Source of the DNA: Rhizodiscina lignyota | Lineage: Eukaryota | Direction of reading: 5' to 3' | Length of the DNA: 64,000 nt | Assembly: GCA_010015805.1 (NCBI GenBank) | Contig: ML978121.1 | Span: 3,534,001-3,598,000, forward strand | Part shown: positions 8,364-52,289 of the stretch, one piece after another | Position numbering within the stretch: position 1 is the stretch's first letter | Layout of the letters: each line of letters begins with the position of its first letter | The notes under the pieces: generated by a model | Database searches by the model: none | Seen by the model: the letters and a program-made list of their open reading frames with translations, nothing else | Told to the model about the DNA's origin: nothing | Made by a program: the position numbers and the translations under genes

Positions 8364-9301
8364 TCAAATCTTCAAGCCTATTTTCATATTCCCGCCTGTT
8401 CTGCGAACACTTTCTAACACTCGAATGAGAAGCTCACGTTTGGAGCAGGAGTAGTCAACATCAATGTCGCCTCCGTCCTTGACAAGGCCAAGGATTGCAT
8501 AGATCCTATCTCTCACATCTTCACACTCTCTTTCTTCACACAGGGATAGTAAACCGATAAACGTAACGCCCTCGCTTTCACTTTCATTCGCACGCCAACC
8601 CTGTTGCCGAAGGTTTAGCCTCTTCCGGCCACATAACACGGTTAAGCTTGAGGCTAAGAGGACCTCCTGCAAAATCCACATGCGTCGCCAATACGGTCGA
8701 CTCAACAGTACCCGAATTGCGTGGAGCGCGGCTGGATGATCCAAAGCCCAATTTTCCCAACCGTTCCATGGCCAATGCCGATGGACTCTAGCGGTGGATA
8801 TAAAAGCGTCCATCGCCTCATCGCTCCGATTAGCAGCGGCACCTAGCCAAATAAGAACTTCCTGAGCCTGGTACAAACCTTAGTTTCATCGCAGCCTCAT
8901 GTTTGAAGAGCAACTCGTACCTGTGAATAAACCTCGCCCATCGTGGCAACCTGATGGTTTCTTTCATGCACATTTCCTTGATCAATACACAGGGCGTCAA
9001 TCCATAACAATGGTATGTGGCCGCTCCGAGCAATTTGACCCTGCCAAAGAAAGCACCAAAGGTTCTCGCGGATCAGAATTTTATTTTCTACATTGTCAAC
9101 TGTAATTTCTTTGGTATTCGACGCATTGCCCCAAGTATACGAGAGTGCACAGTACCGTGGCCGAGCGGAGAGTGGGAAGACATGGAATTTCAACCGGATA
9201 TCAGAACCGTCGTCTCGATTCGCGTGAATGATTTCAACGAGCCGGATACATTTGGTATCGAGACTGAGTGGAACTTGGCTGTAAATGTCATGAGACGCCA
9301 T
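8364..9301 (-). CDS. HET-domain protein (HET-6-like heterokaryon incompatibility), 2 exons
   Basis: IRLVEI, YCALSYTWG, LWIDALCIDQGNVHERNHQVATMGEVYSQ, then an intron at about 8920-8868, then AQEVLIWLG, YWRRMWILQEV, DVRDRIYAILGL and VDYS. Confidence 0.88.
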
Positions 9302-9931
9302 CCCGAATTTGACGAACGGAACCCATATCTTGCGCTGAAAGTGAAAGGACTGCAATGAGTTGAGGAGCGAGTGGCGAGTTTCAGCCTCGCGCGTCTGCCT
9401 AGAATTGATGGCAGCAAGGCTGGTTCAATGTTGACTCGACACGTTGCAGTGCATGTCTTCCAATCGCCCCTCTCTAACAAGTACTTTCCAAATTCTATCG
9501 TGAACCGTCACCTTTACAGACTATTTCTTTAGACTCGCTTCATAGTTAGCTGCCTCCGTTGTGCGTTTAATATTCGGCCTCGGACTGGATATCCCCTGAC
9601 TTGAAGGTTATTCATGAAGCCGAACAATACGTGCGGCGATGCTACCGTAAGCGTCTCGAGCAGGAATATTACAACTTGGATTTCAAGGAATTCATAAACG
9701 AGCGGTAGCGAAACGAATTCGGCAAGGTCTTGGAAACGCATCACAATCGCATCGGACATGAGATCGGCGATGTTTCGCTTGTAAAAGATAGCTTGGCTGG
9801 GAAGAGTGCGTGAGAGCGAAGACGGCAACGATCACTGTCGGCGTGAATAAGGAATCTAATTAAAACCAATTATATCTCCCACTCAATTGTATATTGAAAG
9901 CGCTCGATGACAGAATATCGTTGACATCAGC

Positions 9932-11632: not shown

Positions 11633-13552
11633 ATGGATGGCTTGACAGCATTTGCATTAGCAGGAACCATAGCTCAATTCCTGCAGTTCAGCCTTGCGCT
11701 CTTCTCTGGGGCAAGAAAAGTCTATCAATCTTCTCAAGGTGCTTTGCCCGAAAACATCGAAGCCGGCGTCATCGCCAATTTTCTATGCAAGCATGTGGAA
11801 GCTTTGCAAGTCCATGCTGTTGTGGCTGAGCAGGATGCGGACACAAGATTAATCTGCCTCTCTCGATCCTGTGTTGAAATTGCTGGGGAGCTCGTCTCTG
11901 CCTTAGAACGCATTAGGTCGAAAGGCAAGGGTAAATGGTCCTCGTTCAAGGCGGCATTATTATGTGTGTGGACACGGCCAAAGATTGAAGAATTGCAAAG
12001 GCGGCTCGACACGATGACACAACAATTACAACTGTGTGGAATTGTTTCTCTCAAGTAATAGCCTTTGATCGTCTTTGCCAACTCACGCTGCTAACGAAAA
12101 GTCTAGTGCACAACTTGTGCGAGCAACGAAATCAACAGACACTGTCCATGACGAGCTGAAGGGTCTTCGAGAAGATATTCGGGCACTTACCAATCTCTCT
12201 GTTCAAAGACCTAAGGAACTAGGCTTCACTTGGGAAACTGGTCGACCTGAAGATCATATTTGTGTTGATGATGGACTAGGCCCAGTCTTTTATCTGCCCC
12301 GAGATCTCTGTGCTTCCCGAAAGGTAACCTCAAATATACGACTATCGATCAATTATCAGGGCTAATTATTTTTTAGTTGTTTCAGAGTACTATGGAACTG
12401 AAATACTCCTCGAGAAACCTTCCTGGGCTACATCAAATGCGACGAGGTCATTTTGTAGTATTCAACTGGAGCGACACAGCCACACTCAATATACACAATT
12501 GGAGCTCCTTGATGAAAGAAGGGCGCGGCATCAAAATCTCCTTCATTATGTGTACTTGGCATGGGTTTCCAAGGAATAAATGCTTACGATGCTTCAAACC
12601 AAGGAAACAAGGTGCCCAAAGCCGACGGCATCAGATCTGGTCAGTAAATGCATCAACTATTCCTTGAGACTTTGCACAAGTGGTAACAGTAACCAGCTCC
12701 TCGTGCGGCTTGGACCTTCGTTATGTTGAGCCGGACGTCATACCCTTCGAACCTGAAGACATAAGTATAGGGATGAGTCCAGATACGTATCGCAACCATC
12801 GTTTGAAGTCGCTCTCAACCAGTCCCCGAGGAACAAGAAAAGAAGATAATAGCGCTCCAACAGTCCCATTGGCGCCATCCAACCTCGAATGCAAAATTAA
12901 AGATGAAGAAATCCCAATCGACTTTGTATGCCGCCGAATAGTGCTTAAGTGGGAACCGATGTGGAATCTAGTCTATCGGTATCTTTACTGCCGTTGCGTG
13001 ATCCGGCTATCTACTCCATCGCGGTTGGAAAAAGAGATGACAGTATTCGCTCTTGCCCCATGTCCAAGGCATAATGACATTGGTGCGAATTATTTGGACT
13101 ACGGAAATATTGATTATCACCAGGATCCGTACTTCGACCGTTATGGAGGATATGATTGTTTTCGGGCTATGGTACTCTTATGCGGCGAGAACATCTATAA
13201 AATATTAGGAAGTGATAAATTCTTGAGTAAGGAGGAAGTTGATACTGCTGCTGACAAATTACTGCTGCATGAAGAAAGGAACTCAGGCGCCGTTAACAAC
13301 TCCTGCCGTGAACTCTTTTTGGAAGTTAACGACTATTTGCAAAGAGACGGCTTCGATCTCTCGAGCGAAATCCTGCAACGTCTTGAAAAGGAAAAATTAC
13401 GGAAGAACAAAGAGAAGGATGAACTCCTTGACATTTTCTCTCTCAGCGAAATACCGCGAATAGATTTCAGTGACACACCGATAGTTAAAGAAGTGGCCGA
13501 GATTTTGGACGGAAAGTGGTTAGGAAGGCCGCATTGGGCAGTTGACCCATAA
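11633..13552 (+). CDS. Multi-exon protein with a fungal STAND/NACHT N-terminal helical domain, a probable ubiquitin-like domain and an unknown C-terminus
   Basis: MDGLTAFALAGTIAQFLQFS...KWSSFKAALLCVW...IEELQRRL is typical of NACHT N-terminal domains. The next exons read HICVDDGLGPVFYLPRDLC...FQSTMELKY...LPGLHQMRRGHFVV...NWSSLMKEGRGIKISFIM...CLRC. Canonical introns lie at about 12055, 12324 and 12640. Confidence 0.6.
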
Positions 13553-13859: not shown

Positions 13860-14826
13860 TCAGTTCCCATCCTCGATCGTCAGATTCCCTAATCTGTCTT
13901 TTATGAGCTCCCCATGGCCCGCAAATCTGTTCTTCTTCGCCCACCGCTGAATCGCACCAAAATCCCGACACCGATGCCACCCGCCGTCGAAATCGTAAAA
14001 GTCTTCTGTGGTCGCTAACGCCAGGTCTGCATTGCACGTGAGGCTTTGCCGGATCATGTCGACGCAGTGCATGCTGTGGTTAAAGCCAACTCCGCTCGGT
14101 GCAAAGTACGAATTATTCGGATCGTTGAGCCGCTGTCTTATGATACCCTGTGACTAATGAGCGGCATCCTCGGCTGGCTTTCGTACACGACGTATGGAGT
14201 ATGGATATTGATGACGATGGACTCACCAGACAGTGGAGCTGATGGAAAACAGATATCTGATAGATGCCGCTATTTGGATCGTCTGGAGGTGATGCAGATT
14301 CCGGGATACTGTGAGCAGCAATCCAGTCTTTTGAGAGCCTCACAACGCCTCCATCCTCTAAGACCTCTCGTCAGAAACGCTGATATAACTAGGAAGAGAA
14401 CTACTTTCGCGTGACTTACCTGTGTATGTGATGGATCGCCACCAGTGGTCATTCTCAGTAGAAGGAAATACGGACTCTTGTTTGTTCTCGAACGTTGTGC
14501 GCTGACCATATCTCAAGAGTGTCTCATCTATATGTGATACTTAGCCTTCCATTCTTCAACGATCGTACCTCGTGGAAGGGGACTTTACATTCTGTCATAC
14601 GAGAGGGCAGAATCGCTCCTCTCATGTATATGAGCCATATGATGGGACAGAATATTAAGAGATTGGCAAACTGCACTACCATTAAATATTTCCAAAGGGC
14701 CGCTGGGATACCAGGCTGTTTCAGTCTGTCTCGCGGCTCCCCGTGTTCATCAATATGGTCCTCCAAAGCAGCATAGTTGTATCCTTCCAGTTTGGAACTG
14801 TTTCTCGGAGACAGGAAGTTCTTCAT
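13860..14826 (-). CDS. DUF3328 / UstYa-like oxidase A (type II membrane protein, two HxxHC motifs), 4 exons
   Basis: N-terminal YAAL plus a TM helix, then IYQISVFHQLHCL, FNHSMHCVDMIRQSLTCNADL and WHRCRDFGAIQRWA. Confidence 0.92.
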
Positions 14827-14876
14827 GGACGATAGACAGATTAAACGAGCGGCAACAGTTCAAGATGCTTTTGCCA

Positions 14877-14904
14877 GGCAAGAATATGAGGCAAGAATAT
14901 GAGG
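14877..14904. repeat. 13-bp perfect tandem duplication (GGCAAGAATATGA x2) just upstream of DUF3328-A
   Basis: Seen directly in the sequence. Confidence 0.8.
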
Positions 14905-15358
14905 TGGAGGCCGATACTTAGCGCATAAGCCGGGCCATGGAGTACTGACTTTAGTGGCAGATGCAAAACACTGTACCCTCTGTACAATGGCGTATTAACA
15001 TCAGGTAACACTGGCGACCGACCTGGGACACGAGATTCAGGGATTATACGAAAGCTACTAAAATCTCACTTGGAGTTTCTTGGATTCGGCTAGCGGAACC
15101 TACGGCCACGGCTTTTAAGGGGAAGTACGGCTTCGGCCAGACTTAGCCACTTTCACGCAAAGAAGACCGAAACCTCAATCGGCGAAGATGACTATGTTCG
15201 GGTTCTTGTGATCTGCTGGACTACAGTTTCTGGAATGATCGATAAAGCGAGGTTTGAGTTCAGAAATTCAAGAGCTTTTGCACAAAACGTGTAATGAACG
15301 GTAAAGGGGATGCCCTCACTAATGACACTACATGATACATCCCTTGGTCATATATCGT

Positions 15359-16504
15359 TTAGAATACAATTTCTGGTAGCTTCCCTCCTGACTTCTCTCC
15401 TCTCCCCTTCGCGTTCTGCTTGACTCTCTCATCGACCCATTCTCGAATCTTTCCAAAGTTCCGGCAGGTATGAGGGTAGTTCGAGTCCACATATCTGAAG
15501 CCGCCAAGGAAGTCGTAGAACTTTGTTGGGATTGGTGTGAGATCACCGGAACACATTATATATTGGCGTATCTGGTCGATGCAGTGTCCTGGCTCGAGCT
15601 GTCAGTAGAGTTTTGTTCAGAAGATGAGCAGGTAAATTGAACACTACCTTTGTGCAACACCTCGAAGTTCGCAGTAGCTGGAGGTGGCTCGTAATACTCT
15701 GGCCAAAGCATCTGACGGATCTGATTCTGCGAAACACAGTTAGCGACAAATTTTGGTTCCAGAGAAGTTGTGCTTACAACGCAATGTAGTGTGTGGAACA
15801 TATCCAACCTGAAACCCTGATCAGTAACTGATTGAAATCTGGCTTCAACGGAGAGTTTGTCTACCCGACCAAATATCCTTCCTCGCCACCAGGCATTTTC
15901 GCGTAAGCTTCCTTCCACTCCGTTGGAAATGCAGCTCGAGCTTCTTCCTCGGTGATCATAAAATAACGATCTTTCCACGTTAACTCAGAATTTCCGGCCA
16001 GAGCACACAAAGATAACTCACCACGAAGAAGTTTCTCCCAGGCTTCGTCGAGTTCAGGAGTTGGATGGCCGACATAATCGATTGGCCCTGGATCCGGGAC
16101 CCAGGCAGAACCGTTCCGTAGCCATGCTGGACTGCCTTTGAACTGTATTTGCTCAACTTGAATTGCGTGCGCCGCTGGTGCTAGATTTCATGCATATTAG
16201 TACGGACTACGGAACCATTCTGAGAGTTTAAGAGCTTGATCGCAGATAGAGGAGTGGTTGGGGAGATACCAAAATCAGTCGACCAGCCTTTCGAAAGCGA
16301 TCCGACTCCAACTCTCTCATGTTCTGCTGAGACGCAACCTGTCTGCCGTTTTGCGTAGAGATACGAACTCGATATCAGAGAGATCACAGTTACAGTCCAG
16401 GAAATGATAAGGGAAATTCGGAGGAAATGATTGCCCCTGCTAATAGATGTCTGATGCTCCACTAATGCGGAATATTCATACTTTGAAAACGGATTGAACT
16501 TCAT
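15359..16504 (-). CDS. DUF3328 / UstYa-like oxidase B (two HxxHC motifs), about 5 exons
   Basis: MKFNPFSKYEYSAL plus a TM helix and GWSTDF, then YVGHPTPELDEAWEKLL, RLDMFHTLHCV/NQIRQML, LHK/GHCIDQIRQYIMCSGDLTPIP and HTCRNFGKIREWV. Confidence 0.92.
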
Positions 16505-17563
16505 CGTCGAATCCGCGAAATCGAAGACTGGACAGAGAAACAATACTGATGTCGAGAGTTGAGAGCATGGTTCTATCCAGAAATGGATGAAAATTGGTAA
16601 TCAGCTCTGTCGTGTGGTTGAAATAAGATACTACTTTAAGAATGTATGCTCAGCGCCAGCTGGTTGCGATAGCGGTTATCCTGTCAGCACCACTTGTAGA
16701 TGAGATTAAACGCAGTCTGTGCGTTGTTGACCGAATGAAGGCTTTGTCGCGTTAAGGAGAGATCAATGCACGCACACAGGTGTACGATAATGTTTTGAAC
16801 CGAGGGAAGAGCAGTCCGGCCAAGCACAAGCTTAGAGCAGGTTTCAGCCTACATCTGTGGCCCCTTGGCACGGAGCTGAAGTTGGACAATATAAATTAGA
16901 ACACGATACGGATAAGGGGAGTACCTATGCTTATGTAACACTCTCAGGGGCCAATCAGAAAAGCCCACACAACTCCGGACTTCCCCGCGTCTGCCAACGG
17001 TCTCCACAACACCATCCTGCAAGTACAGCTATTCCCGAAGTCCAGACATTAAATCGGGCACGCCAACTCAAAGAGGTAAATGTTCATGTGGTAGTGATCC
17101 CGATAGGGCGTTTCGTTCGCTCTGCTCCTGGCCAAATGTGATCATTACTTGTCATGTCAACCTCGATTGTGGCAAAGACTCGCGTGCTTGCAAAACTTCA
17201 GGTTCGACGTCGTCGGTCGCTTTAACTACTCTACTAAGCAGGTTGGGTGAGGCTGAGGAACGTTACTGTACCTAAAGTCGTATATCACCCGGTCGTCTTC
17301 TTCTATTGATATTCATGTTTCTTGTTCATCGTCCATCAGCGCTACCGGTGCGTTCCTGCGGGCCGTGGCAATCATTCGCCTTTCCGTATCAGACTATCTT
17401 CCAGCTCGTGGTCAGATTCGCCTCGCGACAGTTAATTTACCGGGGTCTTGTGAGATGTATCCAATTCAAGGGGGAATGACATTCCTATTCCTACCTCCTT
17501 TGTCGAGCTCACCTGAACACATTTCCATCGTCAAGCCATTTGTATATCGCTATACACAGCAAC

Positions 17564-18514
17564 ATGTCTGAAAGCGTATACGCTCCATTAGACAGAGAGG
17601 TAGAGGACTCTCCTATTGGAGTTTCACCGCGCCGTTGGCAACAGTATTTTTACCTCTTACTTGCCTTTTACGCTCTCTCTGTAGCTGTACTGGTTCTGGA
17701 ACCATTTCAGCAACGCGGATCTGCAGGGATCACAATATTTCCCGAGTGTAAGTCTCTCGTTCAAACCCGAGGGAGACTTAGCTAATACGGGGTTGAGCTA
17801 GTTTCAAAACACCAAGTGACTTTCAGGGAGAATGTCACCTTCGAGCGAGACATTCCCGGTATCAACAACTCGGTCTGGAACTCTCTACTCCCTGGTATGT
17901 GGTTCGGCTCTATCTCATGCCGATTTCCGCGAACCATAAAGCAGCAATGACTGAATATGAATAGAGGGAGCCGGTTTCATCAAAGTCGACGAACCCACTC
18001 GCTTCGGACTTTCGGGTGGCTTTCCCCTTGAAGACCTTCCAGGAACTGCGGAGCAGTACTGCATTTCTATGTTCCACCAATTAAATTGCTTGGTAAGCTT
18101 TTAATGCTTAAATGTCTTCTACATCAAGCTGGGTGGGTATTGGGGCTGATCATTTCCCAGGCCACTTTGAAGCGGGCTTTCGAAATAGTCAAGCAGTCTC
18201 CCAGATCGTCAGAGCCAGACCTTCTCCTAGAGCACGCGGCTCATTGTTGGGATTACCTGCGCCAAGTAAGTCCAGTAGACAATTCCTGCCTTGTAGAGTT
18301 TATGCGTTGACCACGTAATACACAGGCCATTATGTGTGCGGCCGATCTGACTCTCGAGACCGCCATCGTGAAAGACGGGAAGATGTTGAGTAGCGTAGAT
18401 GGATGGGACAGCACACACCAATGCATTGATTATGGGGAGGTTTATGCATATGCATACGAACATCGATCCAATCATAACCAAGACGGGATCATCAACGAGG
18501 GTGAGAACCGTTGA
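17564..18514 (+). CDS. DUF3328 / UstYa-like oxidase C (first motif altered to HQLNC), about 5 exons
   Basis: MSESVYAPL plus a TM helix, then WNSLLP/EGAGFIKV, ISMFHQLNCL, EHAAHCWDYLRQ/AIMCAADLTLE and GWDSTHQCIDYGEVY. Confidence 0.9.
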
Positions 18515-18750
18515 TGTGGGCTTGTCGCCGACTCTCTCCTGTCAAAGCTTCATCGCCGAGACTTTTGGTCCTTTCTAGCTCTACGTCTACTTGCCTCTTC
18601 AAGGCTTTGCTTTGCTTACTGCAATCTCCATCTGAGCTTATTCCGTGCAAAAAGTGGTGGAACAACGACGGGTGAGTGGTATCACACGATAATTGGCGCC
18701 TAGGTGGAACTATTTGAGCATCGGGCTATCAAGTCGCCGCTCTCAGGGAC

Positions 18751-18875
18751 TATAAATATTATGCAAACGTGTCGCCGCAAACACATCAGGCCGCTCGAAA
18801 GTCAATCTCTATCAATCAAAATCAGGTTCGTATGATACATTGAAGTTCTTTCAAACTTCTGGCTGATTGCAACAG
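18751..18875 (+). promoter_or_regulatory. TATA box (18751-18758) and probable 5'-UTR intron (18826-18875) of the small peptide gene
   Basis: TATAAATA followed by a 50-nt GTTCGT...GCTGAT...CAG intron-like segment upstream of the ATG, which is in TTCAACATG context. Confidence 0.55.
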
Positions 18876-18936
18876 AGTATCCGTTCGGGACGAAGATCTC
18901 CAAACAACGTCAAACGTAACGTCCCCAAGTTTCAAC

Positions 18937-19119
18937 ATGAAATTCATCACTGCATTCTCCTTGGCTCTTGCCGCTCTCTTCGCAGCCCCGGCCATCGCTG
19001 CACCGACTCCTACCGAGGGAAGCATGACGCTCGAAGTGCGTGATGCCCAGGGCAATCTGCAGAGCCGCAAGGTCTGGCTCTGCGACTCTACTCCGGGTTT
19101 CTGCAATGCCGTCGCCTAG
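18937..19119 (+). CDS. Small secreted peptide (60 aa), candidate RiPP precursor
   Basis: Clear signal peptide MKFITAFSLALAALFAAPAIA, pro-region APTPTEGSMTLEVR-DAQGNLQSRK and C-terminal VWLCDSTPGFCNAVA. Codons mostly end in C or T, the start context is good, and the gene sits between DUF3328-type genes. Confidence 0.8.
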   Translation: MKFITAFSLALAALFAAPAIAAPTPTEGSMTLEVRDAQGNLQSRKVWLCDSTPGFCNAVA

Positions 19120-19742
19120 AGCTTTCTGGAAAGGATTTCTGTTAAGATAGCAACGCTTGGTATTGCAAGTGGTTGAGCAGCACCACCATTTGAAGGTGCG
19201 GGGAGTCGTGGAAGGGGCTTGGATGCATTTGGTTCGAGGAGTGTAGTGTCTTTGTTGTAGCTGCTTTAGAAAATCGATGTGAAAACTATTCTGGCAATAT
19301 TCTGGCTGTAACGATGAGGGCTCGTTGAGGTTAAACTCATAAATTGCGGCAATCTCTGCTTCGATAAGTAGACTCAACAAAAATGTCTTAATGATGTCTC
19401 TGGCATATCAGTCGCGATTGAATTGCTCTGTTTCAACAGACGCGATAGGGTGTGCCAAGCAATATTGTATATCCGTTATATGACGGCCCAAAGATTCGAC
19501 GGGCCTGCTCGTATTGACGCTCAGGGGCTTCGACGTAAGCGCTGAGTTAAGAAGATTTAGCTTCCAATGAGCGATTGCTTATAAGAGTAACCGATAAGCC
19601 CCGTCTCCTGCTTTATATGAATGACTGAGACCGTAGTCGACTTATGATCGGACCATCTTCTTCATTTTATAAGCGCATAGCCGCGACTCAATCCACTTGT
19701 TTCATCATTTTTGCGAAAGGCAAACACTAAGTCGGGATCAAT

Positions 19743-20507
19743 ATGAACAAGTTTGTACCCATATCTTTAGAAAAGTATGTGCATTAGATTCGCAAGTTGT
19801 GCAACTAAGAAAAGCTCGCTCATACTTGCAGGACCGGCGGAGAAGGCACGCCGAGCGATGTAGAATCAATTCTCGACGACGATGAAAAAGAAGAAGCAAC
19901 ACTCCTATCCCATCTAACGAAGATCAGCCAAAACTCTAAGCTGAATACGTTGCGAGACTCTCCAATAAAGATAAAGATTGTGGTCCTCGGCCTTCTCTTC
20001 ATCAGCGTATTCACGGCCGGTATCGTCATTCTGCGGCGCTTCGGGAAGCATACTTGGATTCCATGCGGTACCACCGCTGCTGAGGCCCGAGCTGCAAACT
20101 GCCACTACGAACCTATGATGAGGGCGTGGATCCCTCACGCTTGCTACTTCCCGGAGCCGAGCGAAGAGTACGACCCCTTCCACGACAGAGAGTGGTTTTC
20201 GGATGAGAACTTGACGGTGCCGGTGGACATGCGGAAGCTCGAGGAGGGAGTAGAGAATTACCCGGTGTACTCAAGACACTTCCATCAGGAGCACTGTCTC
20301 TATGCTTGGAGGAAGCTGGCGATTGCCGTCGAAAGGAAGCTCCCGTTGCTCGACAGCAAATCGCACGACGTCTGGCATTCGAGCCACTGTTCGAAAATGA
20401 CCGTCGAGATGCTGAAAGCTTCCTGGAACGGAACGTGGGAGGATCTTTGGGGAGAGAAATCAACTCGTTCTCCGACATTGTTTCTGGGATGCAAGGAAAT
20501 GAGATAA
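19743..20507 (+). CDS. Divergent HxxHC-HxxHC protein D (DUF3328/UstYa-related subfamily with CGxTxxEARAxxC motif), 2 exons
   Basis: Exon 1 MNKFVPISLE(K) at 19743 and an intron GTATGT...CTAAG...CAG ending at 19831. Then a TM helix, CGTTAAEARAANCHYEPMMRAWIPHAC, FHQEHCLYAWRK and WHSSHC. Confidence 0.8.
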
Positions 20508-20674: not shown

Positions 20675-22447
20675 TCAGATTTCCGACCATTTCTGCACTT
20701 CCATCACTGGCATTTGGCCAGAAGATACCTTCCGAGCAGTAGGCTTTGCGTTCCTTGCCCAAGGTGAAACACCGTCTTCATTATACTTAACGCTGATAAG
20801 TATTACGGCTTGCCCATGTTCTATACTTCTTCGAACGAACACAGAGATGGACGCTCCGGAGTCGAGAAGACCGATGGCAGTGTCAGTCGCAGGTGTGCCA
20901 ACATTAAAGTCCGTTCTTAGCATTTGAGCAAGAGAATCGAGGTCATTCATCCAGACCGCCGGAAATCCAATAACAAGCGAAACCGTGATAAATGAATCAA
21001 TACGAGTCTCGTTCTCCTCCAGGGTTCGGTCATTCAAAGTCGTGTACACGCAGAAATAGTCAAGCGGCTTCGCTGCGCTTCGGACAAGCCGCAATCCAGA
21101 CGTCTTCGATGAAATTTGATATGTCAGCTTGATTGGAAGCTCGCACACAGAAAAGCCATGTGGCGCGAGGGAACTCAAATCCCAACGCAAGTTGGACGTG
21201 TTCGGGTCCAACATAGCTCCATAAGTGGAGGTAGTGCCCACTTGTGGCTGTGGAACATGGACAATTCCCATCGCGAGAGCTTCCAGTTTGAAAAGCTTCC
21301 AACCGGATTCTCGAGACAGCTGAGTAAAGCCGATCCTAGTATACTTTGGTCTTGATACCCCATCCCCCTTCCTCAGGAGAACACCAAACCTCATATGAGC
21401 CCGACCACCGGACCTGTTGTGATAGTTCCTTCTGAGGGTGCAATTCAATAACATCAACAGTATTCCGCTGAATTCGTTTCCAAAAGTGCGATCAAGCGAC
21501 ACCAAAGGGTGCTCTAAGCGCACACCTCGACTTGTGATAGAGGGTGGTTCGAAGTCTCGCCCACCGAAGACATGGTGACAAAAATTTCCACAGTTCCTAA
21601 ACTCAGCCGGAGAGGCCGCAAGCATACCGGTATTTGGAAGACTCCAAAGGGAAGAAGGGTCGAAAGAAGGTTCCAAAACGGCTTTGGTGACGCTCCATGC
21701 GAAGATTGAATCGTCATCATGGTTCCTTATAATCTCGTGCTCCAACCTGATAAATGCCTTGGAACCCTCGCCATACAGCAACGGCATGTTGACACCGAAA
21801 ATACCTAACAAACAATACGCCATATCTTCTTTTCTCGTAGTGTTGCGATTGGATGCCCATGACATCTTCTCCGCAACGCTGGTGCTTCGGCGGAAATTGT
21901 GGAGTAGATGGTATTCAGTAATGCCCGTCACCCTCGAAATCTCTGCCCGAAGGCTCCTCTTTGTCCCCAGATCTTTCCATGTTGCATCATAGAAGATGAC
22001 AAGAGGCGGGGCCAACAGCTCCTGCAGTGTCCAGCCGCGTGAGAACCATGTCGAGGCTCGGAAAGAGGTTAGTGTTTCCTCCGCGGAGCGATAGAGGTAG
22101 ACATCGGCAAGATACGCATAGCAGACCGTTGACCGTTCATACCAAACATACATTGAGTTGATCGCTTCAGACAACTCTGCACTACTCGCCTTATTGATGC
22201 AGCAGGTATCTATCCAAGCCCATTCAAAGCCATCCTCGCGTGCTATTTTACAAAGGTCAACGATCTTGCGCCATCCGCTAGTCTTCCTCTTCTCCCTCGT
22301 AAGGCCGGCCTGGACATCTTCGAAAGATATTTCATCATCGCCCCAGCGATGTGAGAGAATAGCATAAAGTGGTACTGACTCTTCATGAAATTCTCGCAAT
22401 ATGATTCTCGTATCGTTCGGAGCTGTCGCGGTATGGAGAAGGCGCAT
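20675..22447 (-). CDS. HET-domain protein (HET-E-like N-terminal HET domain, no NACHT/WD40), intronless
   Basis: MRLLHT, YAILSHRWG, WAWIDTCCINKASSAELSEAINSMYVWY, WFSRGWTLQELLAP, KMSWASNRNTTRKEDMAYCLLGIFGVNMPLLYGEG and SIFAW. Confidence 0.93.
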   Translation of the reverse strand: MRLLHTATAPNDTRIILREFHEESVPLYAILSHRWGDDEISFEDVQAGLTREKRKTSGWRKIVDLCKIAREDGFEWAWIDTCCINKASSAELSEAINSMYVWYERSTVCYAYLADVYLYRSAEETLTSFRASTWFSRGWTLQELLAPPLVIFYDATWKDLGTKRSLRAEISRVTGITEYHLLHNFRRSTSVAEKMSWASNRNTTRKEDMAYCLLGIFGVNMPLLYGEGSKAFIRLEHEIIRNHDDDSIFAWSVTKAVLEPSFDPSSLWSLPNTGMLAASPAEFRNCGNFCHHVFGGRDFEPPSITSRGVRLEHPLVSLDRTFGNEFSGILLMLLNCTLRRNYHNRSGGRAHMRFGVLLRKGDGVSRPKYTRIGFTQLSRESGWKLFKLEALAMGIVHVPQPQVGTTSTYGAMLDPNTSNLRWDLSSLAPHGFSVCELPIKLTYQISSKTSGLRLVRSAAKPLDYFCVYTTLNDRTLEENETRIDSFITVSLVIGFPAVWMNDLDSLAQMLRTDFNVGTPATDTAIGLLDSGASISVFVRRSIEHGQAVILISVKYNEDGVSPWARNAKPTARKVSSGQMPVMEVQKWSEI

Positions 22448-23045
22448 CCTCGAGACGTTCAGCGAACGATATTTGCGATGAGCTTTTGGCTCCGAATAAC
22501 GCGATGAAATCCGTAAGATGTGCCATGAATATGACAATAATTTTGAAGCAAGAACAAAAAAGACACGAGCAGGGCGACAAGGCGGCGGCCGACAGGATGA
22601 GGCTAAAGCGAGGCTAAGGTGGCGCTAATTTTTCATTTTTCTCGTATTCCCCTATTACGCTCTCATAGCCTTCAAGGCTCCTCTTTGCTGGCATATTAGT
22701 CTCTTCAAATGATACAGATAGTTTATCGATGTATGTGGAAAGGAGGACTTCATCAAAAATAATGACATTTTATCCAGCATGCAGTCAACGGAAAGCTTCA
22801 CTGGTATGTAATCCGCCAAACTCGAATTGGACATTCATCGTCGTGGGTTTTGTTCATTCATGCTCATAATATCTGTAGACGTCATCATATGCCTCTGCAA
22901 TTGTCTCCTACCCTATTCACAGTTCAAGTTCTGATGACAGCTGTGCCTGTTCAACTCAAATCCGCTCTACTCAAAGTTGGTCAGCACGATACCTATCAAC
23001 TTATATGTTTGCGCAATGTTTAGACCTCAAGATTACTGCGTTAAA

Positions 23046-24308
23046 TTACTGCAGCAGAGCATCCTCGAATGGAAACTTCGACAGGACTTCGATACCCGTT
23101 TCGGTAATCAGAACTTGCTGCTCCAGCTTCACTCCTTCAGCCCCGCCTTCCTCCCCGATGTAGCTCTCGACACAAATGATCATTCCTGGCTCGATAACAC
23201 CGTCGTAGCCAGCATCTGGGAAGTCTCCGCGGTCGTAGAGGGCGGGGTACTCGCCCGTCATTCCACAGCCATGTGCCGAGACAAAGTAGCGGTTGGCATA
23301 GTATTTCTCTGGGATTTCCCACGCCTTGTCGGCATACTCGCGGAGCGTCATGCCAGGCTTCAGAATTCCCATGTTATGGGTTACCTGCTCGTACGCGATC
23401 TTGTACAGCTCCTTTTGAGCGTCGGTAGGAGGATCAGGCCCGGTATGAAAAGTTCGCGAGAAGTCCGAATAGTATCCATGACAGCCGACTACGTCAGTGT
23501 CCAGTGCAACGAGCTGGTTTTCGCCGATAACATAGCTTGACGTCTCCTGGAACCACGGGTTTGTTCGCGGACCGGCACTGAGCAGCCGTGTTTCGACATA
23601 ATCGCCGTTCTGCTCGATGACCGACTGGTGCAGGACTGACCAGAGAGCGTTCTCGGTGATGCCTGGACGGATCGCATCGCGAAGCTTGCCAACAGCAACC
23701 TCAGTCGCGCGCAGCGATGTGACGACACATTTGATCTCTTCGGCGGATTTGATGGAACGCGCAATTTCGACGGGTCTCTGGGCGTCGACAACTTTGAAAC
23801 CGAGCTCCTTAAAGGCAATGGCGACGTTTGCGTTGAGGCGCTCCAAGCCAAGCGCAACGTTGGAAGGTTTACCAACAAGCTCGGTGATCAAATTGGCCAT
23901 CTCTTCTGCCCAAGAGCGTTCTCGTTCCGCGATCTTGGGGCCAGCAGCCCCGAAGCTGGCTGTTCTCGCAGGACGCACTTCGTCGACTGTCTCGTACCCT
24001 TCACCTAAATGCAGGCAGCCCGTGAATTCGAACAGAATCGAGCGATTTGCAGTAAGTAGCAAATAACGCGATGCCGGGTTACGCGATGTGTAAACCTGCA
24101 TGTTTCGAGTACCGGTAGCATAGCGGATGTTGACCGCATCTGAGAGAATAACAGCGTCGATGTTTTGTTTCACCATTTGTTCCCGGACACGACCGAGTCG
24201 GTAGAGACGCACTGCTTTAAGATCAATGCCCTCGCTTTCAGGAGCCCGATCCAACAGTGCCATGTCGGAGAGGTCACTTCTTCCAGCATGCCAGTCGAAA
24301 TTCGCCAT
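23046..24308 (-). CDS. M24B metallopeptidase-fold enzyme, DddP (DMSP lyase)-like, intronless
   Basis: IDLKAVRLYRLGRVRE, NIRYATGTRNMQV, ETRLLSAGPRTNPWFQE, LDTDVVGCHGYYSDFSRTF, HGCGMTGEYP, CVESYIG and VKLEQQVLITETG. These contain the pita-bread metal ligands D, D, H, E, E. Likely ATG at 24308. Confidence 0.8.
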   Translation of the reverse strand: MANFDWHAGRSDLSDMALLDRAPESEGIDLKAVRLYRLGRVREQMVKQNIDAVILSDAVNIRYATGTRNMQVYTSRNPASRYLLLTANRSILFEFTGCLHLGEGYETVDEVRPARTASFGAAGPKIAERERSWAEEMANLITELVGKPSNVALGLERLNANVAIAFKELGFKVVDAQRPVEIARSIKSAEEIKCVVTSLRATEVAVGKLRDAIRPGITENALWSVLHQSVIEQNGDYVETRLLSAGPRTNPWFQETSSYVIGENQLVALDTDVVGCHGYYSDFSRTFHTGPDPPTDAQKELYKIAYEQVTHNMGILKPGMTLREYADKAWEIPEKYYANRYFVSAHGCGMTGEYPALYDRGDFPDAGYDGVIEPGMIICVESYIGEEGGAEGVKLEQQVLITETGIEVLSKFPFEDALLQ

Positions 24309-25120
24309 GTTCGAAAGTGTCAGTTCAATTGAAATGGCTTTTACGAGACTCGCTATATATATCGACAACTGTGAAGTCTGAGTATGGCGTATCTCGAGGG
24401 AAGGATTGACGAGCTACGTTTGGCAGTATGCACAGAGGAATACGTCACCAATCCCCTCACAAGGATCTTACTGTAATTCGTTTTGCTATAAATTACTGTA
24501 TAAGGATACAATGCGAACTGAAGTGTACATAGCATACGACTAGCGTAAGCAATAGAAGGGAATTTTACCAAGGCGGCCGAAGAAAGTACTAAGGTACTAC
24601 ACTCCTTACACAATATTCAGCGAATAGAAGTCACAAAGGGTGGAGTGTTAGCAAAGCCTGATGAAATAGTTACCGTAAATGAGAATCTCAGAATTTTAAC
24701 TTATGATCCTGGAATTCGAAGAACTTCCAAAATGTGTGATGTAGCAGCGGACCGGAGCTCTAACTCCTTTCCATGATAGTACAGCTGTCGTACAACGAGC
24801 TTTGAATTAATACCGTCTGCTAACGTCGGCTTTAGAAAGCAAGTTCTCCCAGTCAATTGCGAAGATGCCATCGATAGATAACAAGCAGCCCCATGAAAAG
24901 GTCAATTAAAGCATCGTTATAATCCGAGACATAGCTTTAGTATTCTACAACTATGCTCTCGTTGGCTCGGAACTCCTGTCAATGAGCAAGTCTTTCAGAC
25001 ACGAAAGAACATTTTTCAGTATCCGAAATGTACCTTGCACTTCATCTTTATCTCTCAGTCCTTTTTTAACACCCTAACCATATCCTTCCACGGGCGAAGA
25101 CATGATATCCTTCATCACAA

Positions 25121-26336: not shown

Positions 26337-29300
26337 TCAGCCCAGCATGGCACCCAGACGCTCCAGAGCCGATGGTCCCTCATCAATCTCAATCTGTATT
26401 TCTCCTTCTTCCACTTCGCCCAGAGTGGTGACCTCGGCCTCACTTTCAGCTTCCTCTGGTCCTTTGTGACCGCTCGGGTTCTCGTCAGAGCCTTGGCGGA
26501 TCTGGTAATCCGCTGGACCTCCAGTGTAACGTTTCAGATTGGCTACATGCCCGAACCCATCGGTGGGACCATCGCCAGTGTCTACTTGGTTACGATTCAG
26601 GAATGCCGTATATTCTTGGAACCGTTGTGCAGTGACCGCTTCGGTGTGACGAGTCTCGGCCAGTGATGGTTTGGCGTACCGCTCGACCGGGACATCGTCA
26701 TCGCTATCTGAGCCATCGTCGGACCGCATCATAAATCGATCATTGTCCTCATCTTCAGAGTTCCCATGAGACTCTTCAACCTCGTCTTCCTCCTTTGGTC
26801 TTTTAATAATTTCGAGGACTTTATGCTTGCCTGCCCAATCGTTCAGTGGCAAGGCGGATGGAATAGCACGCTTCCGATGAGGAACCTGTGCATGCCCATC
26901 TCCGCCCTTAATACCACTCTCGACCATAGCAACATGTTCCGCATCCTCAAAATCTCTATCTTTCTCGGCGTCATCGAATAGGAGCAGCTCCTCGCCAGGA
27001 TGCACGACTCCAGCTTTTGTTTCGACATCGCCGATGGTTTGAGCTTGGTCATCGACCCTCTTGTGATGGCGAGTCTTCTTTTGCATTCCTTGCAATGCAG
27101 CCATATTCGCTGCGCTAGAGATATGCTTGCCGCTTGCAATCTTTCCAAGCTCCGCTGGAAAGAGCCACGGGAAGCTCATCAGGGGCATGAACTTTGGTAA
27201 CATCCTGCGTTTTGGCACCTCTCGACCTCCAACTGTCTTCGTCTGGCCACATTCCGCTACCGCTGTTGTGATTTCGTCTGCAGTGACTTTATACATTGCT
27301 ACAACAAATGCCCCCAGTTTAGAAATCTCGGCGCCTCCAGCCTTCTCGATGCAGATCTCGCGGAACCTATCTTTGAGTGCGCTTGTGAGGTTGCCGATCT
27401 CTTCGTGGAATTTGTAGTCGTTGGATTGCGTGTTGTGCTGCAGAACGAATGTAGTCCAAACCTCAAATTCAGTCTCGATAGCATGTTTAGCCATGATCCT
27501 GCGCACGCCGTCGTCGTAGTCGCTTTTGATCCCTTTAACGACTCCAAGGAGCTCCGCCGATTGCTCTTCCTTATATGCGTCCAAAATGCGCTTGTCGAAC
27601 GGCGCATTGTAGAAAGGTTTGAAGTCTATCAGACTGACACGGTCGTACATTCGTCCCAGGACCTTACCTGAACGGTAAGTCTTATCCTTAGCCTTCTCCA
27701 TGAAGTGTGGCCACTCCTTCGGCTTTAGTTCTCTCGTCATTTTCGCCGGACGGCCAGATTTTGGATAATCCACAGCTAGTGCATGGAGTTCCGCGAGTTT
27801 GAGGCATTTGCTATCGAATACTCCAACGTCACTAATATCCGACCATGCGAGGTGCGCATGCGCGATTCGAGGGAGTTGGTCGTTCTTAATGTAAGTGATG
27901 AAGAACTTTGTGATATCTTCAACTCTTACTTCGCGGTCAATTTGATCTGGCTTGGGAGGCCTGAAATCCATGGCCTCTATATTCCAGTGGTGATATGGAG
28001 GAAGCAAATCATGGTCCCAAAGAACCATGTAGTCGTCTCCGTCCAGGTCTCCGCCGGAACACATGTTCGCGAGGTCCCGATCGCCCGTTCGTGGCAGCAC
28101 AACGACATCCTTCAGGTGGCGTAGCTCAGGTACATCAACAGCCTTCACAATGCGGATGTCTCCCGGATGTAAAGATGGATTGCGAGCAAGCATGCAAACA
28201 CCAGCTTTGACTTTATACGGGCCGGTGAAAGGAGGGTCGCGAACTTGTACGAATATTTCCGGAAGGCTCTGGATTCGCTCCTTCGCGGACGCGAATTGAC
28301 CTGGCTGCTCCTCTTTGTAATATCCATGCAACGTCTCTGTCTCATCAACGCAACCGAGAAGGAAAGCGCCTTGATCGATCGTGATTCGAGCCTTCTCCTT
28401 GAGATATCGAATGTTCCAGGCGCGCCAGAGATGGAGGACGGACATCATGAAAGGGTCTTCAGCTCGCATAAACCCATCAAGAATCATCGCTGCCACAGTC
28501 AGCGTCATCTGATTGAAGTCTATACGCTTCTGGAGCAGCGATAGCGCGATCTTCTCATTTTTCATTGCATCAGCGAGCTCGATGAGTTCGTTTTCCAGTT
28601 TCCGCATAAATACTGCATCCGCAACTCCCAATGCTGACAGCAAAGTTATGATTTGTCGGTTCAGCATCGACACCGCAAAAGATGAATAGCGAATAACGTC
28701 GAGACCCTCGTGCTTGGCGGGAAACTTGTACTGGCTTCGGCGGATAATAAGCTCCTGTATCCCCTTGATTTGCGGATCGACAGCGAGCACACCTTTGCAG
28801 CCACCCATGCGGAACTGAAACAATGAGGGATATTCTTCGTTGATATTGTCAATGCCGAATTCCTTTGCGATCATCTTTGCTAGGAAGACTGAGATCCTTC
28901 CAACACCGTCCGTGAAGGTGTATCCGTTTCTCACTATATCCTCCTCTCCCTTAACCTCGACGTGGACGCCATGAATAGACCTCGTTGTGGAGAAGGCTTG
29001 CCCAAGACGCGCTGCCCACTTGGCAACAACTCGAATATCTGTCAAGTCGCCCATCCACGTGCGGATATGTTGCGCCCGTAGAGTCTCGGTGCTAGCGAAG
29101 AAATATGCTCCATGCTCACGGAATTGCGAATTACCAAAGGCAAGGAATTCATAGTGTCGATCGCCGATACGAATGCCGTTATTCATAGCGCGCATGATGC
29201 GGTCGAATATTGCTTCTTGGGTCTCGCTGTCTTCCTTTGCAAAGATCTTGCCTCTCTCGTCGACAAATTTGACTCGTAGAAATCGGTCTTCGAACGCGAA

Positions 29301-30947
29301 GAACTGCCTTATGATTCGATTGGACGTCTCAAGGACCGGTGTCGCATAGTAGATCATGGAAGGCGATACCTGAGCAGCTCGCATGTACGTATAGTGACCC
29401 CCCTTTGCCTTTCTCGGTTGTCTTGGTAGACGAAGGTCGAATATCTTCATGGGATCAAAGTATCGCACTTGTGACTCTGCCGCTTTCTCCAGATGTCGCA
29501 CCGCAAGGTCTTCTTTCATGATGACTAATTGTTCAAGAAACTCTCGGGATATGTTATGCTCGTTGATGCATCCGAGTGAAATGCAGACCTCAAGTTGGTA
29601 TCGAATCCGAAATGCCAGATGAATCGTGTCAAGTTGAAGCAATGTTGCGGAGGGGGACATTGCGTCAATCGGTGGAAGGTCTAGAGTTTGCCAAATTGCG
29701 GCCTCTTTTCCATCACCCATGATACGAGCGATTGGCTCGTGTTCGAGAAAGTGCACATTGTAGTCTCGGAGGGCTCGACAAAAGATATCGTAGGTCGTCT
29801 TCTGATTCCTCTGGCTGCCAAGTTTGAGGCAGAAAGTTCTCCACCGGCCTTAATCTGTTAGCCACATTTAAAGCAAACGGAGAGCATTCTTACCAATATC
29901 AACTACTGCACTCTCTTTCCTTAACCTTACCGAAGAAGCCGCAAGTCCATGGGCGTCACTAACGATATCTGTTTGGCGATACCAGGCTCTCCACTCATCC
30001 CATGTCCTCAGTCTCGGGTCATGCGTAGCCTCGATATTGTCTGTCTTGCGAAAGTATTCCGGTGGCGAAGTGACAGAGAAGACAAGTTCGCGCTCTTCGT
30101 CTGATTGGAACGTCTCAAAGACAGTATGTAATGTTTCCAGTGGGATCCTAAAGCGGAACTCAGCCTTCGCATTCGGTCGAGCTGGGCGGGGGTGTTTGTT
30201 GACCGCGCTTCTCGGAAGATGGAACATGATGGTGATTTCCCTGAAGCGTAAGTTCAAGGTAAACTCAACGGAATGTGAAATTTCCGTCTTAACCGAGCAC
30301 ATTGTCATCATGGATTTTTCGCCGTACATAAATCCGAGGTCCAAACTATCCAGGTACAGCGTAATGCGCTGGGGGTAAAAGTATACAGGATCGACGGGAC
30401 TTTGGTGTAAGCCATATCGTCCTCTAGGCTCGAGACGAGTGCATATGAGCGGGATTTCGCGATCGTTTTCCGAGTCTCTCAATGTGACTGGCTGTCCAAC
30501 GCCTTGCCAGAACGCGCGATGCGGTGGCGGAGAGAAAGTCACATAGGCGGTGTTTTCTCCAATAACTTCGATCCTGAAAATTCTACCCTCACGTGAGAAC
30601 ACGCGATATAGATCCAGCGTCGAGACAGCCCATGGTAATTGGTTCACACGAATCTTGACTTCAAATAGTCCCCGCCAGTCTTGACTGCCGTGTACAAGTG
30701 GCCGTTTGGGCGTTGCGCCACTATTGGCGAAGGCAGGGGAGCTCGTAGCTCTTTGATAGTCGGTTGTAGTACCAATACGACTTTGAGGAGCATATATAAC
30801 GTTCGATTGTTGATCAGAATCCGGTCGAAGCAGAGGTCTGGTTGGTTTTGGAGGTGTTGGCTTTCGCGCTTGCTGATTGACACGAGCTTGCCTGAACACG
30901 CTAAGCAGCTCCTTTGTGGAGTCGGATGTGCTAACGTTTGGATCCAT
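26337..30947 (-). CDS. Eukaryotic RNA-dependent RNA polymerase (RNAi; SAD-1/RDR-alpha-like), 2 exons
   Basis: N-terminal RRM-like region, ETSNRIIRQF, FLAFGNSQFREHG, FTDGVG, FQFRMGGCKG, RNPSLHPGD, catalytic CSGGDLDGDDY and AVDYPKSG. Intron at about 29893-29849. Confidence 0.95.
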
Positions 30948-48363: not shown

Positions 48364-50600
<2,237 letters not shown>

Positions 50601-51322: not shown

Positions 51323-52289
51323 TCATGCTCCAATCGTGAGTCCATTTTCCAGCGCCTTGGCCAGATCCTCGGCCTGAGCCTTTTGCTCCTGTTCCATCAA
51401 GAACTGCGCATATCGACTCCTCTTGTTGTGAATCCCGCACTCAGTCTTGGCCTGACCCTTCCAGCGTCCTGCTCTCTCATCCTCGCCGGCAGCAACCGGT
51501 TGCGTGCTATGCCAATCGCCGACGCTCTTGTATCCCCTGTCCAACAGCTCGTTGTATGGGACGTCGTGCTGCTTGATGTACGCCTGCACATCCTTGAAAC
51601 TCCAGTTGGCGAGAGGGTTGATCTTGATCAGGCCCGCGTCGTCAATCTCGACAATGTCCAAGTCGCCTCGCTTGCCGCCCTGGCTGCGACGTCGGCCGGT
51701 AAGCACAGCCTTGACGTTGAGCTCCCGGTAGGCACGCTGTGCTGGCTCTACCTTAGCGATCCAATCATACCGCTCTTCATCGGTCTCCCAGAAGCGGTCA
51801 CCATACTTGGCGATGAACTCTTCGACGGTTTCGGTGCCGGCAGGCTTGTAGACGTGGAGCTTGGTTTGAGGATAACGAGCACGGACGCGGTCGACGAGTG
51901 ATAGTGTCTCTGGGAAGTGATAAAGTGTGTCGAGGAAGATTAAGTCCGTCTGCTGCTTCAGCGGGGAGGTTGCCGCGATCTTGGAGAGGATGTCCACGGT
52001 GACGAGACCAGTGAGTCCGAACGCAGTTGTTTGATAGAGGTTTGGTAACGTGATCAGGCACCATCTTAATATTTCTGATGTTGAGTTAGCATTGCCGTTG
52101 CTCTGACAGACGCCCCAGTGTCAGCTTACCTTCTGGCTCTAATCTCGATAGCTGCTTGTTAATGTATTTCAGGTGCGGCTTTGTGAAGTACAGATCAGGA
52201 AGAGAGTCTTCGCTGCCACTACCACTTGCATATCCGGACTCTACGTCCGCATGCTCAAGCTTCTCGTCATAAATTGGTGACGAGGCCAT
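51323..52289 (-). CDS. MET16: Phosphoadenosine phosphosulfate (PAPS) reductase, 2 exons
   Basis: YQTTAFGLTG, FLDTLYHFPET, KVEP, TGRRRSQG, KINPLANW, GYKSVGDWHST and ERAGRW...KTECGIH. Confidence 0.97.

Follow-up and report, generated by a model that had tools for sequence, protein, structure and literature searches.

The wood-dwelling fungus Rhizodiscina lignyota, a Dothideomycete of the order Aulographales, carries four genes, A, B, C and D, within 6.6 kb of its genome (positions 13860–20507 of a 64-kb stretch of contig ML978121.1, hereafter the window), and these genes very probably form a real oxidase cluster of the type that makes dikaritins, a group of fungal peptides that are synthesized by the ribosome and modified post-translationally (RiPPs). 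Genes A, B and C encode members of the DUF3328/UstYa family, and gene D looks, from its sequence and predicted structure, like a member of an unnamed sister family of UstYa. Between genes C and D lies an unannotated 60-codon open reading frame (ORF) with a signal-peptide-like start. In the best explanation that we can offer for the locus as a whole, the product of this ORF would be the precursor that the oxidases modify; taken in full, with the precursor link included, that explanation is tentative and somewhat more likely to fail than to hold.

Gene models and enzyme families of the cluster

All four genes of the cluster are intact and lie at the coordinates where the original prediction had placed four membrane-anchored genes. 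Gene A (13860–14826, minus strand) encodes a UstYa/DUF3328 oxidase of 250 residues, with exons at about 14826–14601, 14527–14420, 14360–14227 and 14147–13860 and with the motifs HQLHC (residue 150) and HSMHC (residue 179). Used as a query, its last exon retrieves a 100% identical 250-residue protein, NA57DRAFT_71152, for which a PF11807 domain is precomputed. Gene B (15359–16504, minus strand), also a UstYa/DUF3328 oxidase, is a six-exon model (16504–16270, 16180–16022, 15970–15865, 15808–15778, 15726–15648 and 15588–15359) of 279 residues, with the motifs HTLHC (residue 172) and HKGHC (residue 202). Gene C (17564–18514, plus strand), a UstYa/DUF3328 paralogue, is a five-exon model (17564–17747, 17802–17894, 17965–18092, 18161–18265 and 18326–18514) of 232 residues, with the motifs HQLNC (residue 130) and HAAHC (residue 160). 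The models of B and C were built from sequence alone, with neither transcript nor homologue as a guide. Gene D (19743–20507, plus strand), of the unnamed UstYa-like family, has two exons (19743–19774 and 19832–20507) and encodes 235 residues, with the motifs HQEHC (residue 162) and HSSHC (residue 193); the deposited protein NA57DRAFT_71155, found through the long exon of D, agrees with our model letter for letter. All nine introns in the models of B, C and D are of the GT..AG type and measure 51–89 nt.

The last exons of A, B and C, each taken alone, score 52.5, 48.5 and 28.4 bits, respectively, against the Pfam profile PF11807 (UstYa), above its gathering cut-off of 25 bits, whereas D scores 15.3–15.4 bits, with an expect value (E) of 0.017–0.018, and thus stands outside Pfam UstYa. 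The earlier count of four DUF3328 oxidases is therefore borne out for A, B and C, while D has to be placed in a putative sister family. A, B and C are 27–32% identical to one another, indicating that they are old, diverged paralogues rather than recent copies; judged by sequence, such a set of old paralogues resembles known multi-UstYa clusters.

Each of the four proteins contains one strongly hydrophobic N-terminal 19-mer (at residue 48 in A, 27 in B, 27 in C and 60 in D), with mean Kyte–Doolittle hydropathy of 1.85–2.90 across the set. For all four, this predicts one transmembrane helix near the N terminus, followed by the catalytic domain. The complete HxxHC(x)nHxxHC arrangement is present in A, B and D, with the two motifs 29–31 residues apart, so the description of the genes as HxxHC-type fits these three, but not C, in which the first motif deviates. 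DUF3328 enzymes act as binuclear copper enzymes on unactivated C–H bonds, which they hydroxylate, halogenate or cross-link, and in one of them, CctR, the four motif histidines are coplanar and bind two copper ions (PMC12435403).

Gene D and its relatives

The D family, as defined here, consists of 16 proteins recovered at E up to 0.001 from 221 candidates, and the 15 relatives of D are 32–47% identical to it. Their alignment has 35 invariant columns over the 16 sequences, all of which D, being the query, matches by construction, and residues H162, H165, C166, H193, H196 and C197 are invariant throughout. Characteristic of the family are a membrane anchor, the block CG..A.AR...C..EPM...WIP..C, a pair of HxxHC motifs and a C-terminal Cys. 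Among the fungi with a member are Pyrenula, Xylogone, Talaromyces stipitatus, Pseudogymnoascus, Cadophora and Chlorociboria. None of the 16 proteins carries a precomputed Pfam domain, and just three match PF11807 at E up to 1.

Gene D has the layout of a UstYa protein, with a disordered tail followed by a membrane helix and a lumenal domain. When D is compared with A by hhalign, both motifs fall into register (E 2.7e-4, probability 41.6%), and a BLASTP comparison of B and D returns E 0.001. As a lead only, UstYa is the first named family among the ESM Atlas neighbours of D (score 0.85, with 170 features in common). In the AlphaFold2 model of D, which has a mean predicted local distance difference test (pLDDT) value of 76.9, the two motifs start helices 161–178 and 191–210, and a further helix spans residues 55–81. 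Among solved structures, gene A has no sequence match, the D profile has two matches at E 0.8–0.9, which are not meaningful, and a fold search with the D model returned no structure at E up to 0.001.

A homodimer of D (residues 55–235) is predicted with a score of 0.72, versus 0.00 for the best of three controls; across the runs, contact agreement was at least 86% and partner pLDDT at least 85. The predicted interface is formed by the two motif helices (residues 159–218) and matches, in the model, the four-helix arrangement described for CctR (PMC12435403). In calibration, 21 of 30 proteins with solved structures as same-chain pairs, and 0 of 23 single chains, attained the mark used for calling a homodimer; among eukaryotic proteins, 17 of 29 pairs and 0 of 30 single chains did so, but of seven proteins without an older solved relative just one did. 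The model thus supports, but does not demonstrate, dimerisation of D.

Scanning metagenomes with the alignment of the D family yielded eight loci. One of them, L008, was dropped (a match of 67 residues at 30% identity, E 6e-4, one motif-like site, bacterial-looking neighbours), and L002 (1.9 kb) and L004 (1.2 kb) do not extend far enough to reveal any neighbours. In L001 (3.8 kb) and L003 (2.7 kb), UstYa-like motif exons adjoin the D homologues, at only 15–16 bits, and were not counted. The informative loci are L005, L006 and L007, each at least 9 kb long. L005 (8143–15852) contains a UstYa gene of 57 bits, two D paralogues, a major facilitator superfamily (MFS) gene and a Zn2Cys6 regulator, together with a signal-peptide ORF (15247–15852) composed of 10-residue RQQENVKLTD units. 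L006 (8278–12100) contains a UstYa gene of 31.4 bits and a D-like gene; 1.2 kb downstream, a signal-peptide exon is followed by KR-flanked, Tyr-containing units. In L007 (31–9417), a precursor gene made up of a signal-peptide exon and seven KRDILSQD units is accompanied by a UstYa gene of 54.1 bits, a pair of D-like genes and a Zn2Cys6 regulator.

In all three long loci, therefore, a D-like gene adjoins a gene above the PF11807 cut-off, and an ORF combining a signal peptide with tandem repeats lies 1.2–4.5 kb away. Because relatives of D adjoin UstYa and ribosomal precursor genes in each of these loci, a RiPP role for the cluster of R. lignyota is likely, and because the repeat precursor is in cis in each of them, a precursor in cis would be expected here as well. 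The D-family gene has a UstYa neighbour both here and in the three loci, whereas the precursors there are of the repeat type and the window offers just the non-repeat ORF. Since it sits with UstYa and precursor genes in the few loci visible, the D family, which is invisible to Pfam, could add a mining handle, or marker, for dikaritin-type fungal RiPP clusters.

The short locus L002 also contains, on the minus strand (28–201), a 58-codon ORF that opens like a signal peptide and has a Cys-x8-Cys loop in its C-terminal part; it lies about 680 bp upstream of a D-family gene and is divergent from it. In size and in these two features it resembles the 60-codon ORF of the window, but the sequence similarity is not significant (BLASTP E 0.079) and ORFs of this sort arise by chance at about 0.06 per kb; it was discarded as evidence and retained only as a lead.

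The 60-codon ORF and the source of the substrate

The 60-codon ORF (18937–19119, plus strand) had been singled out in the original prediction as a 60-residue signal-peptide ORF between C and D; it is present there and is the sole candidate substrate in cis. Its product would consist of a signal-peptide-like segment (residues 1–21), a stretch ending in RK (residues 22–45) and, at the C terminus, 15 residues that include Cys49 and Cys56 (C-x6-C). By a heuristic measure, the ORF has the signal peptide expected of a precursor: its start reads MK...AIA|AP, with A-x-A before the predicted cut, and its hydrophobic core has a Kyte–Doolittle value of 2.34. A TATA-like box, CTATAAATAT, lies on the plus strand 178–187 nt upstream of the start codon (18750–18759, reading TATAAATA) and may serve as a promoter element. 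By a codon log-likelihood whose training set was nine large genes from the window, the ORF ranks 13th of 239 ATG ORFs of 45–120 codons in the window, several of the higher-ranked ones being exons of real genes. Three small ORFs in the window are signal-peptide-like, and this one alone scores positive for coding (GC content at third codon positions, 0.67). The coding signal is more than chance would give, though short of proof of a gene; the chance expectation of such an ORF in 6.6 kb, by arithmetic from the ORF-scan counts, is of the order of 0.01–0.2. Judged by these sequence properties, the ORF is probably a real gene.

Clusters with D-family genes appear to carry a precursor in cis, no different sort of backbone gene was seen in the window, and the ORF fills the slot beside D, being the window's sole signal-peptide-like ORF with gene-like codons and having its own TATA box; for this locus, the idea of a single-core precursor is thus the most fully specified mechanism. 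Because position alone links the ORF to the enzymes, we assign it as the precursor of the substrate of A–D only tentatively, giving that assignment appreciably less than an even chance. The minimal precursor-plus-oxidase pathway proposed earlier thus survives in part. Its compact stand-alone cluster without a backbone gene of another kind is observed, and its RiPP role is likely, but nothing except position speaks for this ORF as the precursor; as a reading of the locus, the single-core precursor is plausible and, to us, still doubtful.

Several observations weigh against it. The ORF is missing from the deposited annotation, in which the tags 71152 (A) and 71155 (D) are so close that only B and C fit between them. 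The ORF contains neither a KR/RR site nor Tyr nor any repeat, and hence falls outside the known logic of dikaritin precursors, in which repeated cores are combined with Kex2 (KR/RR) sites. A word-index search of 5.8 billion clustered proteins found no relatives of 33–105 residues, and the best ESM Atlas score, 0.76, is a lead only. A phmmer search of 1.84 billion representatives gave 12 matches at E up to 0.001, all to proteins of 699–2643 residues; the four examined are Ig-like/adhesin-type repeat proteins that share a TL-V-DA-GN strand motif, and the matches were rejected as homologues. Because no homologue of the ORF was found in the databases searched, its linkage to DUF3328 genes elsewhere could not be shown. 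Among the four upstream regions, no 8-mer is common to all, and words common to at least three occur at the frequency expected from shuffling, so there is no shared promoter word. The context that favours a precursor in cis comes from a small sample of just three metagenomic loci.

The enzymes themselves add a further difficulty. The first motif of C has Asn in place of its second His (residue 133; window 18080–18092), within one uninterrupted exon of the C model, so that C lacks the full HxxHC(x)nHxxHC arrangement. In CctR, replacement of the conserved His and Cys residues by Ala abolishes activity (PMC12435403). Because the Asn stands in for a copper-ligand His, protein C may be inactive, may hold one copper ion or may carry out a different chemistry. 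Finally, in a survey of 9399 DUF3328 genes, 31.8% had a repeat precursor no more than 15 genes away (PMC7329392); about 68% lie farther from any such gene, and DUF3328 clusters without a linked precursor are therefore common.

When window positions 18937–19116 were used as the phmmer query, E values as low as 7e-11 were obtained against long repeat proteins. Such values are inflated for so small a query because the short strand motif recurs up to ten times per target.

The main rival to the single-core precursor, and a broader class of explanation, is that the oxidases are real and their substrate is encoded elsewhere, as an unlinked repeat precursor or another secretory-pathway peptide, the ORF being an unrelated one-disulfide secreted protein or no gene at all. 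We regard this as a serious possibility that falls only a little short of even odds. Precursor genes of victorin, from another Dothideomycete, are not known to be tightly linked to the other genes of their pathway. The ORF has neither a homologue nor an annotation, and it lacks the repeats and dibasic sites of known DUF3328 substrates. Besides the distance of most DUF3328 genes from repeat precursors (PMC7329392), the lichen DUF3328 clans R1 and R2 have no detectable precursor, and their authors suggest that it is encoded beyond the cluster or contains just one core (PMC12048977). The three informative D-family loci speak against a substrate encoded elsewhere, since each has its precursor within 5 kb, as does the coincidence, inside this cluster, of gene-like codons, a TATA box and a signal peptide of canonical form in one ORF, at the chance expectation given above.

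If a repeat precursor once stood here and was lost, the cluster could be a relic whose oxidases are drifting and which makes no product. The lack of a repeat precursor, the missing metal-ligand His of C and the HET-domain genes on both flanks (8364–9424 and 20675–22624, minus strand) would suit such a history. It is nevertheless improbable: all four frames are open, with canonical introns, A, B and D retain both motifs, D retains every invariant column of its family, and the surroundings of the ORF show no trace of a former repeat array, no decayed repeat units being found downstream of it. No tandem repeat array occurs within 38 kb of the cluster. At the protein level, the only repeat ORF found in the window is a Ser/Thr/Pro-rich protein of 555 residues at 59–61 kb (59268–60935, minus strand), which has a hydrophobic start and a 132-nt unit repeated about four times; it is probably a cell-wall or mucin-like protein, it has no KR-flanked cores and was ruled out as a RiPP precursor.

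A comparison of the 179 stop-to-stop ORFs of at least 95 residues in the window (106 + 73) with Pfam, which exons shorter than 95 codons could escape, found no non-ribosomal peptide synthetase (NRPS), polyketide synthase (PKS), tyrosinase, methyltransferase or MFS protein, in agreement with what had been stated for the window along with the absence of a repeat precursor. The accessory set of dikaritin clusters (tyrosinase, methyltransferase, transporter, peptidase) is likewise not found among these ORFs. That A–D tailor an NRPS peptide or a polyketide whose backbone gene lies outside the window, as in the cyclochlorotine pathway, is therefore a very improbable explanation, although DUF3328 enzymes are known to serve NRPS and PKS pathways (PMC12435403; PMC12048977) and one side of the cluster is visible for 13.8 kb only. 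Besides the absence of an NRPS or PKS domain in the 64 kb, both flanks turn at once to HET-domain and housekeeping genes (short-chain dehydrogenase, Sec2, M24 peptidase, RNA-dependent RNA polymerase), and the relatives of D accompany ribosomal precursors.

Specifically, the M24 peptidase gene (23046–24413) lies beyond a HET gene, and the RNA-dependent RNA polymerase gene (26337–29849, minus strand) scores 658 bits. Two ORFs, one at 11633–12058 (plus strand) and one of 294 residues at 12668–13552, have no Pfam match. Farther away are housekeeping genes of sulfate assimilation on the minus strand, for ATP sulfurylase/APS kinase (48364–49605) and PAPS reductase (51323–52120).

Proposed pathway and comparison with known systems

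In the single-core mechanism that we propose, A–D would be a stand-alone set of copper oxidases from the DUF3328/UstYa superfamily, anchored in the membrane and facing the lumen, each acting, by analogy with CctR, as a disulfide-linked homodimer. The two HxxHC helices would hold two copper ions, which, with O2 and electrons, would attack C–H bonds in a hydroxylation, halogenation or cross-linking reaction. The substrate would most likely be the product of the 60-codon gene, which, once expressed, would be directed by its signal peptide to the endoplasmic reticulum, and the remaining 39 residues would encounter the oxidases in the lumen of the Golgi, endosome or vacuole. Oxidative modification would probably fall in the C-terminal 15-mer with its Cys-x6-Cys, and final trimming would be left to a protease other than Kex2.

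A single-copy, non-Kex2 propeptide of 39 residues matured by DUF3328-type oxidases and their sister family would represent a dikaritin-like RiPP subclass, which on present evidence we think rather unlikely. If true, it would be a subclass invisible to repeat-based mining and could explain some of the DUF3328 genes, roughly two thirds of the total, that have no repeat precursor in their vicinity. Most DUF3328 genes have no known substrate, and four oxidases with one 60-codon gene would make a cheap test for non-repeat precursors. The "new class" of the original prediction is too strong a term, because a single core for repeat-less DUF3328 clusters has already been raised in print as a possibility (PMC12048977). 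Our literature search found no paper describing a demonstrated DUF3328 RiPP with a single-core precursor.

Single-core fungal precursors do exist, as the acalitide precursor AcaA shows: like the ORF, it is short (81 residues) and free of repeats and has disulfide-forming cysteines (PMC10840396). Acalitide differs in that it needs the peptidase AcaB and involves no DUF3328 enzyme, and we neither found nor claim sequence similarity between AcaA and the ORF. The lichen clans R1 and R2 resemble the present locus as DUF3328 clusters without a repeat region (PMC12048977). Unlike them, this locus offers a concrete candidate ORF, and its gene content differs from theirs.

CctR and the other cyclochlorotine enzymes share with A–D a single anchor, a lumenal helical domain and HxxHC(x)nHxxHC on paired helices (PMC12435403). 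CctR also forms a dimer through its motif helices, an arrangement that is modelled here for D only. In contrast, the substrate of CctR is an NRPS product, whereas this window contains no NRPS, and C has Asn for one of the ligand histidines.

The dikaritin clusters (ustiloxin, phomopsin, asperipin-2a, victorin) differ from this locus in several respects. The candidate precursor here has one copy of its putative core, no Kex2 (KR/RR) sites and no Tyr, the 179 ORFs include no tyrosinase, methyltransferase, transporter or cluster regulator, and one of the four enzymes stands outside Pfam UstYa. A five-gene definition of dikaritin clusters, quoted in PMC12048977, includes a tyrosinase, a methyltransferase and a transporter or peptidase. 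The likeness lies in the double HxxHC motif of the enzymes and in the arrangement of the genes: in the dikaritin clusters (PMC7329392, PMC12048977) and in the cluster of R. lignyota, several diverged DUF3328/UstYa genes adjoin a peptide gene, here a putative one, that bears a signal peptide.

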